A DNA stretch of 49,177 nt from Nanohaloarchaea archaeon PL-Br10_U2g16 (GCA_001563995.1 LKMV01000001.1:1-49177); one strand, 5' to 3'. Numbered from the stretch's first letter, positions 1,892 to 45,130 are shown. Notes: a model not told the origin generated them from the letters alone. A program made the numbers and translations.

Positions 1892-2540
1892 AACTAGAGC
1901 ATTTAGATTCTAAGCAGTAAAAGTACCTTACAGTACTTCAGTTGCTAAAGAAGCCGAACATTTATAAAACTCGGTCAACAAAGTAAGGATGAAAGATAAT
2001 GAAGGCCCTACAAAACAATCTATGGTCTGGCATGCATTCCAGGCAGATGTACTGCTTTGATAGGGCCAAGGCTATTTTCTATACCCCAATTAAAGTGCTG
2101 GCAGAATAGAGCGGGATGACGCCTTGGCTCCGGATCGGAGCCACACGCGAGCCGACCGCGAAAACACAAAACTTCTTGAGAGGATTTTCAACCTGTCATT
2201 CCTACGCTGTAGATCCTCAAAAAGGCGGTCTCTGCTTTAAGTGGAGGCCGTCTTCGGAACATATACAACCTCCAACAACCAGCTAAACAACACAAAAGGT
2301 GTCAACAATTCAAAACGCAAACACACGAGACTTTGAAGCCGAGCTACAAGCACAAGAAGAGCAGAACATGCCACAGAAACATCAGCTTTCAGAGCAGGCT
2401 ACAGTCTTAAGCGCAACAGCACTATAAGAAAGGGATAGTCCCAACCGGAGCCTATTTTTCCCGTTTATCGGCTATTAGTCTTTTTGCTCTACCTCCGGTC
2501 TACAGGGAACATCCCTGTCACCCTTACGCCTTTTTTCTTT

Positions 2541-6829: not shown

Positions 6830-7921
6830 ATGGGGAAAGAATACTACGACATTTTGGGAGTCTCAGAAGACGCTTCCCAAGATGAGATAAAGAAAGCGTA
6901 CAGAAAAAAAGCGAAGAAGTACCATCCTGACTCCAACTCGGATACTGCTGATGAGGATAAGTTTAAGAAGATCAATAAGGCGTATGATGTTCTTTCAGAT
7001 GAAGATAAACGTAAGAAATACGATCAGTTCGGTAAACAAGGCGTGGAAGGTCACGCCGATAGAGGTCAGAGAAGAGCCGCCTCCAACTTCCAGGATATAT
7101 TTGAACAGATCTTCGGCGGCGGAGGCTTTGGAGGCGGTAGACGGAGAAAGAAGCAGAAAGGAAAAGATCTAAAAATACATACCACTATCAGCTTGGAAGA
7201 AGCTTATACCGGTGTTGAAAAGACATTTGAAGTCAGCAGAAAAAAAGAATGTCAGGAATGTAACGGTTCAGGAGCGGAGAACGGTAATACATCACAGTGT
7301 TCAGAATGTAGAGGTAGAGGAAAAGTTAGAGAAGTTCAACGTACGCCTCTAGGCAGGGCAGAGACAGTTACCGAATGTTCTAGATGTGAAGGAACGGGAA
7401 AGATTCCTGACCAGAAATGCTCTGAATGCAACGGCAAAGGGGTTAAAGAACAGGAAGAGACCGTCACGGTAGAAGTGCCTGAAGGTGTTAAAGACGGTCA
7501 GAGGCTAAGGGTTCGTGACAAAGGAAACGCTGTCAGAAACGGAAGAAACGGAGATCTCTACGTCTATGTAAATATCGAGGAACATCCTGAGCTGGAGAGA
7601 AAAGACGAAGACCTGTTTACAACGGTAAAAGTCGGGGTAGGAGACCTGACATTGGGTAAGACCGTTGAGATCGACCATCCTGATTCAAAGATAGAGTTCG
7701 ACATACCTGAAGGAACCCAGCCAAACCAGGTTTTAAGGTTGAAAGGTAAAGGCATGCCGTCAAGATCTAGGAGAAAAAGCCACGGAGACCTTTATATTAA
7801 AATCGATCTTGAAATTCCTGAAGATATCTCTGACGAGGATGAAGAAGTATTTGAGAAGTTTAGGAAAGAACCTGGAAGCGAAAAAACGTTCTTTGAGTCC
7901 GTTAAGGACTTTATAAACTAA
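6830..7921 (+). CDS. dnaJ: Hsp40 co-chaperone DnaJ
   Basis: J-domain KEYYDILGV...[14 protein letters not shown], a G/F-rich linker, and four CxxCxGxG zinc-finger repeats ([32 protein letters not shown]). Confidence 0.95.
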
Positions 7922-11325: not shown

Positions 11326-12018
11326 CTAAATATCGTCTGAGATTCTGTCCAGCAGGTAGATATCCAGGAATCCGAATCCTGCCTTACATAAGAACGGCAG
11401 AATTACATATCCTAGAGTTACCTGGTAGTCGGACAGTACTCCAAGCCCGTAGCCTCCTACATCACCTAGCGCCCAAATCGTTGGGTAGCTCAACCAGGTG
11501 AGGATTACGAAGAGGCCTAACTTGTGGTATTCTCTGTTGAGAGCGTCGTTTGACTCTGTAACTCTCATCAGAGGACCCCAGATCATATAGATCACTCCAA
11601 ACATGAACAGGCAGCTTATCCCGTAGAATGCCCATGTAGCTGCAGCGGTCTCGGCAACGTGTGCCAGAAGACCTGCTGCGATCAGCATGAACTGAAGACC
11701 CATCAACGAACCTACCATGCTCCAATCAGTTGAATCGCTCGCAATATAGGCGGAAAGCCCTAGAGCAAGAACGATCAACGGCGTGGAAACAAGCCAGTCC
11801 GCATAGAAAGCCAGTTCAGCTATAGAGGTGTCGTACAGGATGTTCATATACATCAGACCCGACCACGATACGATAAAGAAGTGGATCAGGTAGAACTTCT
11901 TCGGTACGTCACCCCAGTTCTTGGACATCCAGAGGAAAGCCACCGCTGACAGAGCCGTAGCAGCTATATAAGCTGCAATAGTCTGGCTCGTCAATGTCGC
12001 TAGCTCTGGAAGTACCAT
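11326..12018 (-). CDS. Microbial (type-1) rhodopsin, divergent
   Basis: Seven hydrophobic segments. Helix C reads AFYADWLVSTPLIVLALGL (compare BR ARYADWLFTTPLLLLDL and HR ARYLTWALSTPMILLALGL). Helix F reads WLSYPTIWAL (BR WSAYPVVWLIG). Helix G reads VILPFLCKAGFGFL with the Schiff-base Lys (BR VLDVSAKVGFGLILL). Confidence 0.85.
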   Translation of the reverse strand: MVLPELATLTSQTIAAYIAATALSAVAFLWMSKNWGDVPKKFYLIHFFIVSWSGLMYMNILYDTSIAELAFYADWLVSTPLIVLALGLSAYIASDSTDWSMVGSLMGLQFMLIAAGLLAHVAETAAATWAFYGISCLFMFGVIYMIWGPLMRVTESNDALNREYHKLGLFVILTWLSYPTIWALGDVGGYGLGVLSDYQVTLGYVILPFLCKAGFGFLDIYLLDRISDDI

Positions 12019-16500: not shown

Positions 16501-16966
16501 AACAAGTTCAGACCAACTTTGAATTAACCATTCTAATGGATATCAAGTAAATCAGTAGAAGCTCAAAAGGTTATCTAACTTTTAGTTATAGTAGAAGGGT
16601 GGTGAGGAGGTGTCCCCAGATGGTGGTGGTCGATCTAGGGACACGTTATAAAGTGGGTGCGGTTCATTAACGATATTTCAGCGCCTGTTTAAAAACCTTA
16701 GGAAGATCAGTTAGTAGAGAAAACTTGCATCTATAACATAGAATCTTATAATTAAGATAAAGCCTGACGATTAAAGCAACATAAAACATCATAAGAGTAG
16801 CTTAAAACCCTTGCCTGAAGCTATAACGTCAGATAACTAGTTCCAAAATATAAATATTATGTCCAATTGGTTTTTAGGTGGATCAGTTTGGAAAACAACA
16901 GCTTCAAATTACCGTCATTTATTTCAAATCACCATGGATTTAAGCTTTCCATCCGGGTAGGTTATT

Positions 16967-19408: not shown

Positions 19409-19945
19409 ATGGCCCGGGTGTTCTCAGCTGTAGAGGTTGAAAGTAATGAGCTGCAGCAGGAGCTTGTAGAAGTTAGGAACCGGTTCGATCTAGGTTTTAA
19501 CCCGGTTGAAAAAGATAAGTTTCATGTCACCCTACAGTTTTTCCAGGATATCGAACAGAGACAGATAGAAACCATCAAATCATCTATGGAAAAGGTTAAT
19601 ACCGATAGCTTTTCTTCTAAAGTAAGAGGAGTTGGATCATTTCCTTCAAACAGTTACATACGCGTGATTTGGGCCGGAGTAGAGTCTAAAAGCTTCCAGA
19701 AGCTTTATAGCCAAGTATCCGACCATGATGTAGAGGACGACCACGACCATGATTTTAAACCACATATTACGTTTCTGAGGGTCGAGGATATTTCATCTCA
19801 AAGAAAGAAAAAGATCCAAAAGATGTTAAAAGAGTTTGGAGACCATGACTTCGGTAATCTTAACGTAGAACGTGTTAAGCTGTTCGAATCAGAGTTAAAA
19901 CCTTCTGGTTCGGTTTACAGACAGCTGCACGTGAAAGAACTTTGA
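19409..19945 (+). CDS. RNA 2',3'-cyclic phosphodiesterase / 2'-5' RNA ligase (LigT/ThpR, 2H family)
   Basis: Two H-x-T/S-x motifs (FHVTLQF and KPHITFLR) at the spacing expected for the 2H phosphoesterase family. Confidence 0.8.
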   Translation: MARVFSAVEVESNELQQELVEVRNRFDLGFNPVEKDKFHVTLQFFQDIEQRQIETIKSSMEKVNTDSFSSKVRGVGSFPSNSYIRVIWAGVESKSFQKLYSQVSDHDVEDDHDHDFKPHITFLRVEDISSQRKKKIQKMLKEFGDHDFGNLNVERVKLFESELKPSGSVYRQLHVKEL

Positions 19946-26379: not shown

Positions 26380-26961
26380 TTGAGACTATCTAAAAGTTAC
26401 AGGTTATCTATGGACTCTGTTAAACAACTTCTAGAATCAGAAGAACTTGATGAAGACAAAAAGATTGAAATTAGAAGATACTTAGAGCCTATAGCTGATA
26501 CTCTGTATGAAATAAAAGAAGAAAAAGAGCCAAATATTTATGGAAGCCTTAAGTTTGATTCAAAGACATTAAAATCAAGGAATGAATGTTTAACAGGTGC
26601 AGGCCCGGATTTGGCTTTGAGAGGCATAGAATCCCTCGAATACTTCAGAGAAAACAATAAAGGATACCGGATAGAGTTAGAATGTATTGAAAAGCTGAAA
26701 GAAGATGCAGAAGATATTGAAAAACACAGAACCAGGGAAGAAGAGAAACAACTAATAAGGAAGACTGTGGAACAGCTTTCAAACAATGGTGATTCTAACA
26801 GAAAGATAGATTACCCTACTTACAGAGAAGTCAAAGAAACATTTGACGAAGACATAGAACACAGCTTGACAGAGGATGCATTTAGAAAAAGGTTTCACGA
26901 ACAGGATAATATAGAGAAAATTGAAAGAGCAGGAAATCCAGCGTACAAAGTAGCAGAATAA
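26380..26961 (+). CDS. Hypothetical protein (193 aa)
   Basis: ORF ending 1 nt before the tRNA. An alternative start is at 26410 (MDSVKQLL). Confidence 0.5.
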   Translation: MRLSKSYRLSMDSVKQLLESEELDEDKKIEIRRYLEPIADTLYEIKEEKEPNIYGSLKFDSKTLKSRNECLTGAGPDLALRGIESLEYFRENNKGYRIELECIEKLKEDAEDIEKHRTREEEKQLIRKTVEQLSNNGDSNRKIDYPTYREVKETFDEDIEHSLTEDAFRKRFHEQDNIEKIERAGNPAYKVAE

Positions 26962-26962
26962 A

Positions 26963-27133
26963 GCCTCGGTGGCTCAGCCTGGCTAGAGCGGTCCCCTCGT
27001 AACCGATCAACTCGTGGAGTTGTGAGGCGAAGAAGATCTCTGATCTTCGAGTCCGACTTCTTGAGCGTAAGCGAAAGATGTCGGATGAAGGCGAGCAAGG
27101 GACAGATCCCGGGTTCAAATCCCGGCCGGGGCT
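26963..27133 (+). tRNA. tRNA-Thr(CGU) with long intron in the anticodon loop
   Basis: Hand-folded. Acceptor GCCTCGG pairs with CCGGGGC (one G-U). D-arm GCTC/AGCCTGGCTA/GAGC. Anticodon stem GTCCC with loop CTCGTAA (anticodon CGT), whose 3' partner GGGAC appears only after an insertion of about 96 nt. T-arm CCGGG/TTCAAAT/CCCGG, discriminator T, and no encoded CCA. Confidence 0.85.
27002..27097 (+). other. tRNA intron (about 96 nt) at canonical 37/38 position
   Basis: This sequence separates anticodon-loop nt 37 from the GGGAC 3' half of the anticodon stem. Exon CUCG can pair with intron CGAG to form the central helix of a relaxed bulge-helix-bulge. The boundary may shift by 1 nt because A is repeated. 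Confidence 0.7.
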
Positions 27134-27217
27134 TCTTGTATCTTTTTGACAGAGCCTAGATTCCTTGTTCGGAGAACTGTTCCGGTCCTTGTTCTTCAAG
27201 GCTTCAAGATTATAATA

Positions 27218-40207: not shown

Positions 40208-43200
40208 TCAGACCGTAAACTGTTCAAGCCCGCTCTGACGGTTATCTTTACCGAATAAGCTTTGAATCGTCTTTTTCAGCACCAGAATCTCCTGTCTGGT
40301 GTAAGGTGAGATCTCATACTCATCTATCAGATCTTTCGATGGGTTCAAGTACTTCTTGATAGTCCCCTCAGAGATCGTAAGCAGTACCTTCCCGTCACAT
40401 TCAGGACACTGAGCCGTAGTCTTTCCTGTAGGAGCTATCGTCTGGTTGGTCATAGGCACACGTCTAAACTTGGTGTTACAGTCTACACAACGCATCTCCT
40501 GGGAAGAGAAAGATCTCAGATTTCCTTTAATATCCGGTATGAAATGTTTGTTCAGCAGAAGCTCCGCGACAGAGTCCTCATCCACACATTTCAGCTTTTC
40601 ACAGAGACCTAGCTGGGAAGACGTCTTATCACTCATCTCATCCAACGTTACGTACTCGCTCTGGTTTGGACCGTTCTCTACATTATCCGTGTCATGTGTA
40701 TAGCCATGTCTAAACGGCTCATCCGAATGGACGATATCCTCGCCTATCTGAATTTCTGTTTCAAGTTCCCATGGCTTTTTGTAATCCAAAGTTTCCTCGT
40801 AAAAGCTGAGAGGATATTCATCAACAGTCTCTATCGCCCATGCCTCATCGTCCACCTCATCAGCGTTCAAAACTGTTGAAAGGATTAATGGTGCGTCCAT
40901 GGTTCTTGCACCTGTCATGTCAGGCAGGAACTCTCTTGAAAAGTTTAAAAGTCCATCCATAAGCAGTAGAATAGCGTCCTCATCACCATCACAGTTGTTT
41001 GTGATTAAATTTTCAGATGTGAGGAAGTTATGTGTTTCTTCAACCTCTATATCGTACATAAACCTTTCCTCAGCTTTCTCTATTTCTTTCTCAGTTATTT
41101 CATCCAGCACCAAATCATTTTTAATTTCTATTCTTGGTTTTCTAGCCTTCTCATAATCTTTTTCTAACGTTTGTTGCTTTCTTTCCAGCTCAAATCCTAT
41201 TTCCTTACCAAACTTTACCGCAAAGGAAGATCTTATGTGTAGCTTGTGGGATGTAAATGTCTCCCCCTCATAATGTTCCTCTCCGTACTTGTCAATTAAT
41301 ATACCTCCGGCTTCTCTTTCAGAAGTTGAGAAACGGGCAAATATTCCAAATCTCTTCAAGAGAAAGTCCATATCATCCAAAAGCTCTCTTGAAACAGATG
41401 TAGCGTTTATATGTAGTCTACCGTCTTCAACAGCTCCATCTCCAGCGAAGTATGCTGAAAGCATATGTCTTACCTTCTCTTTAGGCAGAGATTTGACTAA
41501 CTGCGGTACCTTTTTAGTATGAGCTCCTTTTCCGGCTTCAAGGTTTTCAAACACCTCATAGATGATCCTAGAACTTATGGTTAGTATATGGTCTCCTTCA
41601 GATGGTTCAACACCGAATACTTCTACAATACTTTGTTCTATATCTTTTTTCAGTTTTTCTTCTCCAAAAGCGAAACATACCTGGTAAAACTCTTCTCCTT
41701 TTTGCTCTGATTTCCTAATATACCCTTCAGCGAGATAGTATCCTATCAACTTCATGAAATGCTTATCTATCTTTACTGTATTTTCTATCTCGATATTATC
41801 TCTTTTAGCTGCTAAAACTGCGTCATCCGAGATGCTATAATCTTTATCTGCGGCCTCCGACAAATTATTAAGAACTTCTATCGGCGTACTTTCTCTATAT
41901 CTGTAGTTGCTTAGAGTTTTTTTATTTGTGCCTATCTCATCCGAAGCTGATTTCAAGCCTCCTAAACTATCAATTAGCCTATTCAGCTCCTCGTTAGAAC
42001 CTCTTATACTTATATCCTCTGGCTCTATAAAATCAGTTATTCTTATTTTGAGTATATCATCTTCTTCTACAGGTATGGTTAATGGATTAATGACCTTATC
42101 TCCTTCATCTACCGCTCTAGCTTTTTTTATACCCTCTTCGGTCTTCACCTTGTGATCCGGGAACACTGATATCTTTCTGCCCGATCCTGTCTCGAAATGG
42201 ATTTTAAACTCTTGGGCAGGGGCTCTATACACCTTAGAAGCTTTAGAAGAGTTTAAAGAACCGTTCTGCTCCGAAACAACATCCAGATCAATACTTTTCT
42301 CTACAGTGCCTGTGCTGTCAGCCTCTTCAGCACCATCAGCCCTTTCAAATAACTCCTTTAACTTGATACTGTCCCCATTAGCAAGCTTAATTTTCTCATC
42401 TCCTGGTAAACAGTTCCTTCTTTTCGCTGCATGCCAGTAAGGGTGTGCATAAATCCCTTTAGCGTCTGTAAACCCTATAATCCTTCCTACTGTTCCTCCC
42501 GAGGTGTGGGGAGCCAGCCCGATTACGAGAGACCCTACAAGATCTTCTTTATCCTCTACATTATAGTAAGGCTCTAGACCGTAAAACTTCTCCAAAAGTT
42601 CATCCACAAAATCTGCTACACGCATAAAGTAGTCTCCTGCAGCTAAAGTATTGTCTGAGTCAGGTATGACTATGTCCTGAGGCTTCATGGCTAACACTTG
42701 GTCCTCTGATTCAAGAGGCTCTCCATCAACATCCTCAGTGTATCCAAGCTCTCTAAGCCTTTCTACTGATACAGATATTTCCTTAGGCTTGAAATGTGTC
42801 ATCGGTAGATCGGATGCATCGTATCTGACCGTTCCGTCCTTGTTTACGTATAAATCATACTTTTCTCTCAGAAATCCTTTTTCTATAGGCTCTACATGTT
42901 TATGTTTCCCGCTCATACCTCTAACGGATTTAAGCAGCTCAGGCATCTTTCTTATTCCAAGATTGTCCATAGCTCTATTGACAAGATCCTCTACCTCGAT
43001 ATCAGTATATTTGTATCTTGACAGTCTATCGTTTCCACAGCTATCACAAACCTCTTTTTCTTCTTTATGCTCTTTCTTACAGTCTGTACAGAACCATATC
43101 GGCTCAGTGGAAACGTTACAGTCCAGACAGTATGAGAAGTAGCTGTAATCTCCGCATTCTGGACATTTATTATGTATTATACCCTCTCCGTTAATTTTTC

Positions 43201-45130
43201 CATGTTCGTATGCAGCTGCCAGGTTTCTCATCCTACCACCTTCTTCTTTACCGCAAGGGAACAGAAGCTGTGGCTTTCCTTTAATTGTTCTTCTTTCAGC
43301 CTTCTCAGGACGGCCCATCCTTCCTCCAAGGTAATGTGGTGCTTGTTCTCTAAGCTCTACACCTGATACCTCCTCAATAAACTCGGGTATATCTTCAGCA
43401 GATTCAATATCATTCAAAGCATCTTCATTGTCCTGCTCCGGTCTCAAGAGAGCTTTTAACACCTTGTGATCATTTTTAGTAAGCTTTATCTCTCCATCCT
43501 CCATCTTATGTTGGAGAAGTATATCTTCAAGACATTCTTTAGTTTTTTTACCGGAAAGATCCTCGTTTTCCAGAGAGCTGTACAGTGCTTTAAACCTTTC
43601 AACAGTGGTCTCAGTCCAGTGGTAGGTCCATTTTGGATGGAGCGGTATACCGAGTTTTTCAGATATTTTAAACGCCTCCTCCGGGGTCGGATCCCTATCT
43701 GTAAAGTCCCTACCCAGCTTTACGTCTTTTTGTTCCACAGCTCTCCCCAGCTCTTTCTCCCACCACTCTTCAACATAAGGAGATGGTAAAAGTTTTTTAC
43801 CGTTCTCTACAAACTCTCCAAACGGCGTTAACATGTCTCCTAGGAACAGTATCTCCTCTATATCATCTTCATATTTGGTAACCATCTCCCTTGACTCCAT
43901 CCTCATCACATCACCGTTTTCCAGTTTTACAACAGGCGGATGTATAGATTCACAAGGCGTTCCAACCGTAGCTTTCATAGGATACTCTGTCTTCATCTGT
44001 GTTCCTATAGAAAGAAACCTTTCCGTTACCTCCATGGTAGCAGGATGGAAAGATGTAGCTGCAAGCCCGTTAGTCCTAGAGTGGCCGTATCTAAGTCTAA
44101 AGCCTCCTTTTCTTCCAGGATGGCCAAATACAGGTCTTCCAGCGGTAAGAGAGCCAAGGTATTTGTCCGATGGAGTGTATCCTTTTTCTTCCTCTTTACC
44201 ATCTTCCTCCTCTTCTTCGTCAGAATCTCCTGATGAGTGAATCTCTTTCTGAAGATCAAGATAACCTCCGACCCATTCCCAGTGCTCCAGTCCAAACTCT
44301 TCTCCCCATTTCTCTATACGTTTTTTTATCTTAGGGGCTTTAAGAGGTAGTCCATCTAGATATACCAGACACATACCTCCTCTTATTCTATTGCTTTGTA
44401 CCCTATCTAAGTCTTTGTAATTTGAAACATCCAGCTGCTCAGTAGGCGATCCTGTGACCTCTACAGGCACGTTTTCAGCGATGAACTCTGTCTCTTCTCT
44501 GGTCGGGTTGTACTGTTTGGCTGTAATTCTGTTATAGTAGTCTTCAACCTCTGCAGCATACCTTTTAACCACTGTATCGGAAGGTTTGAACTTATCAAGT
44601 CCGACACCTATCCTCACGTAATCAGATAGAAGCACGCTCATAGCTGATGCCGTTCCACCGGCAGATCTGATAGGTCCTGAGTAGTAAACCGCCAGATATT
44701 CTGTTCCATCGTTGTTTTCACGTATCTTTATTTCTCCAATTCCTTCTAAAGGCGCTGTGGTGATTCCTCCTGTCATGTAGGACACACCTACACGAATACC
44801 TGCGTTACAAGCCTTTTCTTTATCATCAAACTCGTAAAAATCCCCTTGTGCTATCTCTCTGGCGATCGAGAAAGCTACACGTTCATCATTTTTACCATAC
44901 TCATCCTCTAGCTCTCTTATCCTTTCAGGCACCCCTTGGTCTTCAAGCTCCGGAAACTTGGCGGCCATAACAAGCGAAGAAGCCTTTTCCGGAAGATCTG
45001 TTGCTACAGGGATATCTGCCTTTTTCTCCGGATCTTTAGACTGTGATCTTGCTTCGTTAGCAACCTCAAATGCTTTATCCGTCTGTTCAGATATTTTTTC
45101 AAAGTATTTTTCTGTTTCCATTACTTTCAC
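40208..45130 (-). CDS. DNA polymerase II (PolD) large subunit DP2, intein-containing
   Basis: The conserved DP2 catalytic block YAHPYWHAAKRRN|...|CDGDEDAILLLMDGLLNF is split by an insertion. The C-terminal zinc-finger clusters of DP2 are also present. Confidence 0.97.
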   Translation of the reverse strand: MKVMETEKYFEKISEQTDKAFEVANEARSQSKDPEKKADIPVATDLPEKASSLVMAAKFPELEDQGVPERIRELEDEYGKNDERVAFSIAREIAQGDFYEFDDKEKACNAGIRVGVSYMTGGITTAPLEGIGEIKIRENNDGTEYLAVYYSGPIRSAGGTASAMSVLLSDYVRIGVGLDKFKPSDTVVKRYAAEVEDYYNRITAKQYNPTREETEFIAENVPVEVTGSPTEQLDVSNYKDLDRVQSNRIRGGMCLVYLDGLPLKAPKIKKRIEKWGEEFGLEHWEWVGGYLDLQKEIHSSGDSDEEEEEDGKEEEKGYTPSDKYLGSLTAGRPVFGHPGRKGGFRLRYGHSRTNGLAATSFHPATMEVTERFLSIGTQMKTEYPMKATVGTPCESIHPPVVKLENGDVMRMESREMVTKYEDDIEEILFLGDMLTPFGEFVENGKKLLPSPYVEEWWEKELGRAVEQKDVKLGRDFTDRDPTPEEAFKISEKLGIPLHPKWTYHWTETTVERFKALYSSLENEDLSGKKTKECLEDILLQHKMEDGEIKLTKNDHKVLKALLRPEQDNEDALNDIESAEDIPEFIEEVSGVELREQAPHYLGGRMGRPEKAERRTIKGKPQLLFPCGKEEGGRMRNLAAAYEHGKINGEGIIHNKCPECGDYSYFSYCLDCNVSTEPIWFCTDCKKEHKEEKEVCDSCGNDRLSRYKYTDIEVEDLVNRAMDNLGIRKMPELLKSVRGMSGKHKHVEPIEKGFLREKYDLYVNKDGTVRYDASDLPMTHFKPKEISVSVERLRELGYTEDVDGEPLESEDQVLAMKPQDIVIPDSDNTLAAGDYFMRVADFVDELLEKFYGLEPYYNVEDKEDLVGSLVIGLAPHTSGGTVGRIIGFTDAKGIYAHPYWHAAKRRNCLPGDEKIKLANGDSIKLKELFERADGAEEADSTGTVEKSIDLDVVSEQNGSLNSSKASKVYRAPAQEFKIHFETGSGRKISVFPDHKVKTEEGIKKARAVDEGDKVINPLTIPVEEDDILKIRITDFIEPEDISIRGSNEELNRLIDSLGGLKSASDEIGTNKKTLSNYRYRESTPIEVLNNLSEAADKDYSISDDAVLAAKRDNIEIENTVKIDKHFMKLIGYYLAEGYIRKSEQKGEEFYQVCFAFGEEKLKKDIEQSIVEVFGVEPSEGDHILTISSRIIYEVFENLEAGKGAHTKKVPQLVKSLPKEKVRHMLSAYFAGDGAVEDGRLHINATSVSRELLDDMDFLLKRFGIFARFSTSEREAGGILIDKYGEEHYEGETFTSHKLHIRSSFAVKFGKEIGFELERKQQTLEKDYEKARKPRIEIKNDLVLDEITEKEIEKAEERFMYDIEVEETHNFLTSENLITNNCDGDEDAILLLMDGLLNFSREFLPDMTGARTMDAPLILSTVLNADEVDDEAWAIETVDEYPLSFYEETLDYKKPWELETEIQIGEDIVHSDEPFRHGYTHDTDNVENGPNQSEYVTLDEMSDKTSSQLGLCEKLKCVDEDSVAELLLNKHFIPDIKGNLRSFSSQEMRCVDCNTKFRRVPMTNQTIAPTGKTTAQCPECDGKVLLTISEGTIKKYLNPSKDLIDEYEISPYTRQEILVLKKTIQSLFGKDNRQSGLEQFTV
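40994..42412 (-). other. Intein in PolD DP2 (473 aa) with LAGLIDADG homing endonuclease domain
   Basis: The intein starts CLPGDEKIKLANGD directly after KRRN and ends ...HNFLTSENLITNN, followed by extein CDGDEDA. Internal LAGLIDADG motifs are LIGYYLAEGY and LSAYFAGDGA. The penultimate residue is Asn, not His. Coordinates come from locating TGT at 42410-42412 and the C-terminal AAC at 40994-40996. Confidence 0.85.

Follow-up and report, generated by a model that had tools for sequence, protein, structure and literature searches.

[quoted passage not shown] Haloferax volcanii has BHB introns of 103 nt (tRNA-Trp), 75 nt (tRNA-Met) and 31 nt, and the two long ones have been verified experimentally and recovered as circular RNAs (PMC7714728). 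Among DPANN archaea, lineages that have an L3-loop EndA show more tRNA disruption (PMC5829648). Here we analyse a 49,177-nt stretch of DNA (the window) in which a tRNA-Thr(CGU) gene is interrupted by an intron of 96 nt, and we place this intron in the context of those found at the same site in related archaea (loci are given by L numbers). The intron is real, but it is fairly ordinary for its lineage.

An intact tRNA-Thr(CGU) gene with a 96-nt intron

Across the window, the sole Rfam match is to the tRNA family RF00005. The model aligns end to end (positions 1–71) to the plus strand, with a score of 42.8 bits (gathering score of 29, E = 7.5 × 10−6) and an insertion of ~98 nt within the anticodon loop (Table 1). 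ARAGORN reports nothing for the window by default; with intron detection, it calls tRNA-Thr(cgt) with a 96-nt intron, given as ‘tcgta-Intron-aggga’. The original prediction had named a tRNA-Thr(CGU) at this span with some 96 nt inserted at 37/38; the isotype, the insertion site and the coordinates are correct, and ARAGORN returns the length exactly. Because the nucleotides at 27002 and 27098 are both A, the intron boundaries can be moved 1 nt rightward without changing the product.

Table 1. Positions of the tRNA-Thr(CGU) gene, its intron and splice-site elements in the window, and of representative core copies in related loci
Feature	Position	Strand	Basis or remark
tRNA-Thr(CGU) gene, 171-nt precursor	26963–27133	+	RF00005, 42.8 bits; ARAGORN with intron option
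5′ exon, tRNA positions 1–37	26963–27001	+	RF00005 and ARAGORN; same as 5′ part of intron-less L014
Anticodon stem, 5′ strand (outer BHB helix h)	26991–26995	+	Pairs with 27099–27103, probability 0.98
C32–G35, 5′ strand of central 4-bp BHB helix H	26996–26999	+	Pairs with 27092–27095, probability 0.98
Anticodon CGT	26998–27000	+	ARAGORN; direct reading of the sequence
5′ splice-site region, U36 A37 / A (intron 1)	27000–27002	+	MFE: U36 paired with G27091; A37 and A1 in multiloop
Intron, 96 nt, canonical position 37/38	27002–27097	+	ARAGORN; exon junction matches intron-less orthologs
Intron arm 1, CC:GG (27003–27004 with 27026–27027) closing CAACUC-GUG-GAGUUG	27003–27027	+	MFE and centroid; pair probability 0.95
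Intron hairpin 2, GAAGAUC-UCU-GAUCUUC, perfect 7-bp stem	27032–27048	+	MFE and centroid folds
Intron hairpin 3: 7 bp, U·U mismatch, 4 bp, tandem GA/GA internal loop, 2 bp, GUAA tetraloop	27051–27086	+	
Intron CGAG, 3′ strand of helix H	27092–27095	+	Pair probabilities; ortholog conservation
3′ splice site, 3-nt bulge C A / A38	27096–27098	+	Fold
3′ exon, tRNA positions 38–73	27098–27133	+	RF00005, ARAGORN and ortholog comparison
Anticodon stem, 3′ strand	27099–27103	+	Pairs with 26991–26995
Oligo-T run, 10 nt past the tRNA	27143–27147	+	Sequence; T-rich tails also follow many orthologs
Core copy in L013	6631–6678	−	Intron core
Core copy in L025	627–675	−	Intron core
Core copy in L018	1615–1662	−	Intron core
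Core copy in L008	2887–2933	+	Intron core
Core copy in L052	162–210	−	Intron core

The joined exons (39 + 36 = 75 nt) have 100% the same sequence as the intron-less ortholog L014, and they are also identical to the exons of Nanosalina J07AB43 L009 (14-nt intron), L035 and L037. CCA is not encoded, and U73 is the discriminator (27133). The whole precursor folds as a cloverleaf with a structured intron (−77.2 kcal/mol, z = −3.7), and none of 200 shuffled sequences was equally stable. The oligo-T run that follows the gene is probably an archaeal terminator.

We consider it very unlikely that the gene is a disrupted pseudogene, that the insertion is a self-splicing (group I/II) intron or that it is an assembly artefact. 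Although default tRNA finders miss the gene, its exons are intact and identical to those of functional-looking orthologs, and an intron interrupts this site in dozens of independent assemblies. [quoted passage not shown] Archaeal group I introns, nanohaloarchaeal ones included, have been reported only in rRNA genes (PMC6125680).

Genomic context

The window encodes DnaK, DnaJ, GrpE, RadA, RPA, an archaeal histone, both PolD subunits, Cdc6/Orc1 and a rhodopsin. Several DUFs are of haloarchaeal type, the encoded proteins are very acidic and GC content is ~42%. We scanned one genome per species with an exact pattern taken from the stretch of the 5′ exon that covers the D arm, anticodon stem and anticodon. 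This returned 26 loci. Nanohaloarchaea and uncultured archaeal MAGs account for 25 of these, among them Nanosalina J07AB43, Nanosalina VS9-1, SG9, M3_22 and Nanohalobium MAGs. Many relatives share with the window a gene order of M42 peptidase, DUF5794, M29 peptidase and tRNA-Thr. The shared synteny and the pattern loci therefore identify the window as nanohaloarchaeal (DPANN) and the tRNA-Thr genes as orthologs. The spacer between the M29 gene and the tRNA varies among relatives.

In the window, this spacer region includes a 193-aa open reading frame (26380–26961, plus strand) that ends 1 nt before the first base of the tRNA, so that the tRNA promoter would fall inside it; a TATA-like ATAATATA ~50 nt upstream of the tRNA could be read as a putative promoter element. 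The reading frame has only a self match in a collection of 5.8 billion protein clusters, no Pfam domain and no tblastn match in the relatives, and as an orphan it was set aside as a synteny anchor.

A LigT/ThpR-type 2′,3′-cyclic phosphodiesterase (‘2′-5′ RNA ligase’ family; 19409–19945, plus strand), which is an RNA-end-healing enzyme, is encoded ~7 kb from the tRNA, and neither an EndA nor an RtcB gene was found within the 49-kb window. The PolD large subunit DP2 (40208–45130, minus strand; 1640 aa) has an intein inside its catalytic domain, with a LAGLIDADG homing-endonuclease domain at roughly residues 916–1378. A bacteriorhodopsin-family gene is located at 11326–12018 (minus strand; Pfam E = 8 × 10−41).

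A relaxed BHB motif at the splice sites

The 3′ splice site is a textbook BHB half, in which a 3-nt bulge separates the anticodon stem (helix h) from the 4-bp central helix H. The latter is extended by a pair between U36 and G27091, and h, H and the extension all have pair probabilities of ~0.98; for this architecture the MFE and centroid folds are the same. The 5′ cut site (A37/A27002) is located in a four-way junction, with the following C27003–C27004 paired to G27026–G27027. A textbook hBHBh′ arrangement (bulge U36-A37-A1; h′ formed by 27003–27004 with 27090–27091) lies 4.9 kcal/mol above the MFE, and the canonical h′, when forced, is a CC:GG helix of 2 bp only (pair probability 0.001). The expectation that the flanks would allow no more than a relaxed BHB is thus borne out: only the 3′ half has the canonical form, the 5′ site being in a junction loop. 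A relaxed hBH, or bulge-helix-loop, would be a fair description of the motif as modelled.

The only intron segment shared between the window and 32 distinct introns is the 3′ end, YGAG plus 2 nt, so that conservation is confined to the BHB end. Of these 32 introns, 19 form a central helix H of 4 bp and a further 10 form one of 3 bp; the contiguous h′ helix across orthologous introns is usually 1–3 bp. In the mini-introns of 12–15 nt, the anticodon stem is followed by a 3-nt bulge, a 4–5-bp helix and a terminal loop that holds the 5′ site, which makes the motif a bulge-helix-loop. Given these looped 5′ sites, the endonuclease of the lineage evidently accepts a 5′ site that is not bulged, and a bulge there would evidently not be a requirement. 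Such tolerance agrees with the link between L3-loop EndA and tRNA disruption (PMC5829648).

Length variation and turnover among orthologs

We assembled 41 nanohaloarchaeal tRNA-Thr(CGU) genes from three sources: the genome scan, the same pattern run against metagenomes, and look-ups around the closest homologs of the M29 peptidase. An intron is present at exactly the site of the window in 36 of them, with lengths of 12, 14, 15, 21, 29, 49, 64–83, 96 (the window), 108–135, 173 and 186 nt. The median across genes with an intron is 79 nt, and introns are at least 96 nt in 12 of the 41 genes. The original prediction had called the intron unusually long, which is accurate in comparison with archaea generally but does not apply within this lineage.

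The intron is dispensable among relatives. In a collection of ~15 billion proteins, the closest match to the M29 peptidase of the window has 74% identity, and the nearest relatives by this measure (71–74%) have introns of 12, 173, 0, 29 and 0 nt. Seven look-ups around M29 homologs yielded three further tRNA-Thr loci, none of which has an intron like that of the window. Differences persist at much shorter distances: among genes with 400-nt upstream flanks that are 86–88% identical, L015 has no intron whereas L022 has one of 12 nt, and L014, L035 and L037 have none whereas L009 and L028 have 14 nt. Where flanks are ~80% identical, the introns differ by hairpin-sized blocks (77 nt in L013 versus 112 nt in L010; 79 nt in L025 versus 135 nt in L021). 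Changes in presence or in whole blocks at 80–88% flank identity therefore establish that turnover of the intron is very fast.

A covarying core in the introns of relatives

Most of the relatives’ introns of at least 49 nt contain a conserved two-hairpin element of ~47 nt (Table 1). It consists of a hairpin P1, the linker AAR, a hairpin P2 (CCAUKC-loop-GMAUGG, extended by AAG/CUU) and CUUUCARG; for matching, the core was defined as CGCAAYAAG-hairpin-CUUUCARG preceded by a P1 hairpin. P1 occurs as GAUGCG/CGCAUC, GACGCG/CGCGUC, GACGCC/GGCGUG and GUUACG/CGCAAU. About 15 loci beyond those in the table bear the core. Counts of pairs support both helices: 87% of cells are paired, compared with 25–44% when the partners are slid; changes on both sides occur in 7 of the 15 core pairs (21 cells), and the covariation score was reached by none of 500 shuffles. 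The core matches no Rfam family, and a box C/D motif was found in none of 27 relatives’ introns.

We built two covariance models, R1 (P2 with its flanks) and R2 (P1 and P2), which score 23–58 bits on the relatives. The window intron does not match either: R1 gave no match on the plus strand of 26990–27105 (116 nt) at E values up to 10, and with filters off neither R1 nor R2 found anything inside the intron in a search of the whole window. An idea raised by eye, that hairpin 2 with its flanks (GCGAAGAAG-AUC..GAU-CUUCGAG) is a shortened version of the core (CGCAAUAAG-CCAUGC..GCAUGG-CUUUCAG), was ruled out by the two models; MAFFT, blastn-short and nhmmer found no similarity between the hairpin 2 region and the core.

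One copy of the core is free-standing. It lies at 2210–2259 (plus strand) of L038, directly after the stop of an open reading frame in a 218-nt intergenic gap, and is matched by R2 with 45.1 bits (E = 4 × 10−9). No tRNA was detected around it. The contig also has its own tRNA-Thr ~2.8 kb away, with a separate core in the intron, and the free copy is most like the intron of L017. The arrangement suggests that the module can be an independent gene or that it was copied out of an intron. In the window, a GTTCA..TGAAT hairpin followed by AACCATTCTAATGGATATCAAG at 16506–16547 (plus strand) resembles the L018 core; the AT-rich intergenic gap around it, 845 nt long, is downstream of a histone gene. 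As a candidate free-standing core it was rejected as a chance match (R2, 11.8 bits, E ~ 0.24), with no support from blastn or nhmmer.

Other intron-like pieces occur outside the gene. About 67 nt upstream of the tRNA-Thr of L003 (tRNA at 7735), 17 nt of the tRNA 5′ end recur (GCCTCGGTGGCTCAGCC), fused to an intron-like GACTGGTTACGCTCAGTCGACACGCAATACAAG, and similar intron-like fragments are present upstream of the tRNAs of L042 and L047. From their sequences, these fragments look like footprints of duplication or rearrangement.

Together with the extreme turnover of length and content at one orthologous site, the pieces in L038, L003, L042 and L047 could be taken to mean that the intron is kept through an evolutionary role, either as a selfish element, spreading or expanding through transposition or reverse splicing, or as a gene disruption that shields an integration target. 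We regard this as improbable. No second copy of the window intron was found in the window or in any locus searched, and no duplicated tRNA halves, att-like repeats or integrase are present near the gene; in the window as a whole, no 14-mer of either tRNA half is duplicated, as would be the signature of an att site. Moreover, such a role concerns origin and not mechanism, and is compatible with ordinary splicing. A viral or mobile origin of the interior was likewise discarded: exact patterns from the window interior had no hits in two scans of viral contigs, and the core and exon patterns, when run against such contigs, returned nothing beyond chance matches or bacterial phages.

The interior of the window intron

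Between the conserved ends, the window intron folds into an arm and two hairpins (Table 1). The original prediction had pointed to an internal GATCTTC hairpin, which is present as hairpin 2 and is supported by thermodynamics. The GUAA tetraloop of hairpin 3 is of the GNRA type, a motif taken from the sequence. Folding is more stable than expected for the intron with the anticodon arm (z = −4.3) and for the intron alone (z = −2.5). A K-turn between CCGAU at the 5′ end and GGAUGAAGG at the 3′ end was considered by hand and rejected, because the required GA/AG tandem beside a 3-nt bulge is absent.

The same prediction had also raised the possibility of an embedded small RNA, and this fared less well: the intron has no box C/D motif, no Rfam family and no conservation. 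We scanned it, in linear and circular form, for a C box (RUGAUGA) and a D box (CUGA), plus C′/D′, with guide spacers of ~12 nt, and found no C box with at most one mismatch followed by a D box at 9–14 nt. A box C/D guide for 2′-O-methylation of the tRNA itself, of the kind carried by tRNA-Trp introns in Haloferax and other Euryarchaeota, is hardly credible, and at the level of sequence it is effectively refuted. The length is near that of the 103-nt H. volcanii tRNA-Trp intron, and there is a weak half-motif (GUGAGGC-11 nt-CUGA) and a GAUGA near the 3′ end. However, matches of this quality are at chance level (a half-motif with two mismatches occurs in ~5% of shuffles, and the circular version with 2/1 mismatches in ~50%), the CUGA sits within hairpin 2, there is no second C′/D half and no Rfam C/D match, and the relatives’ introns also lack the motif.

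The main alternative is that the intron is spliced, but that its interior is a functional, stable and probably circular small RNA, specific to this lineage, that replaced the P1–P2 module. Its stability is significant, and the perfect stems, together with the GNRA tetraloop and tandem G·A pairs of hairpin 3, are features that could reflect selection beyond splicing and so speak against a neutral filler. The topology, a closing helix plus hairpins, is the same as that of the core-bearing family. The covarying core of the relatives, which also stands free in L038, shows that the site can host an RNA module, and because most relatives carry it, the sequence inserted here is not neutral filler in every case. 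Archaeal introns are known to persist as circles after excision (PMC7714728). Against this, blastn-short and nhmmer found no homolog of the interior in the 47 related loci or in the window itself, nor did the scans of viral contigs; an Rfam search at a relaxed threshold returned no family, and the core models do not match. Among the nearest relatives the intron is missing or very short, and an insert that merely clamped the splice sites would be equally stable. We therefore judge a functional interior to be unlikely. The more specific proposal, that tRNA-Thr(CGU) introns are a hosting site for small structured RNAs and that the window swapped in a 96-nt RNA that is released as a stable circle with a function of its own, is a shade less likely still.

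A proposed splicing pathway

The reading that we favour, and consider likely, is that of an ordinary endonuclease-spliced intron whose interior evolves fast, is dispensable and has no other role, in a functional tRNA-Thr(CGU) gene of single-copy type. After transcription, the anticodon stem would stack on the 4-bp helix formed by C32–G35 and the intron CGAG. The stacked helices would present the 3′ cut site in the 3-nt bulge and, across the helix, the 5′ cut site in a junction or loop. EndA, the tRNA splicing endonuclease, is predicted to cut both sites, and an RtcB-type ligase to join the exons into the 75-nt tRNA; the excised intron would probably be circularized by the same type of ligase and then degraded. 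We infer that the 96-nt interior corresponds to the insertion-tolerant apical loop of a bulge-helix-loop, filled with stable hairpins, and that the three hairpins would serve only to hold the two splice sites near one another. One observation that counts against an ordinary intron is that the 5′ site lies outside a canonical 3-nt bulge in the MFE.

Annotation and wider relevance

Genes of this kind are readily misannotated. With intron detection, ARAGORN misplaces the intron in L005, L009, L012, L019, L025, L027, L028, L032, L034, L040 and L046, calling these orthologs Ser, Ala or Thr(agt) although their exons have the same Thr(CGU) sequence. The tRNA of L001 (1100–1450), which has a 186-nt intron, is not recovered by Rfam as one match covering the whole gene. 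Because default finders miss the gene, a nanohaloarchaeal genome can seem to lack tRNA-Thr(CGU) when it is present.

The window intron alone is one further, sequence-unique example, from a halophilic DPANN archaeon, of a long tRNA intron of the BHB type. The by-products of its analysis, namely a covarying intron-hosted module with a free copy and fast gain, loss and expansion, may deserve more attention. A single orthologous site that ranges from 0 to 186 nt, with genomes that differ in state although their flanks are ~87% identical, is a compact natural series. It is useful for the study of archaeal tRNA intron gain, expansion and loss, and of how much of a BHB the DPANN endonuclease needs.

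Comparison with known introns

The window intron shares with canonical archaeal 37/38 BHB introns, cut by EndA and joined by RtcB, its insertion site and the anatomy of its 3′ splice site, and its central helix is likewise formed by anticodon-loop nucleotides 32–35 and the intron 3′ end. It differs in length, being several times longer than the usual 15–40 nt, in the location of its 5′ site in a multiloop and in its 2-bp h′. The tRNA-Trp intron of H. volcanii is similar in that it is a BHB intron of ~100 nt in a halophile and that its 3′ end pairs with the anticodon loop (PMC7714728). That intron hosts a box C/D guide RNA, whereas the window intron, in a tRNA-Thr of a DPANN host (Nanohaloarchaeota), has no C/D boxes.

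With the nanohaloarchaeal introns that bear the P1–P2 core, the window intron has in common the gene, site, synteny, YGAG-NN 3′ end and closing-helix-plus-hairpins topology; it differs from them in having no match to the core models and no sequence similarity to any member. Compared with the disrupted tRNAs of DPANN archaea and Thermoproteales, which have multiple or transposed introns, it is a single intron at the canonical position and is not non-canonical, split or permuted. The resemblance to these systems lies in its setting, a lineage in which tRNA introns are frequent and variable and a relaxed splicing motif is tolerated.
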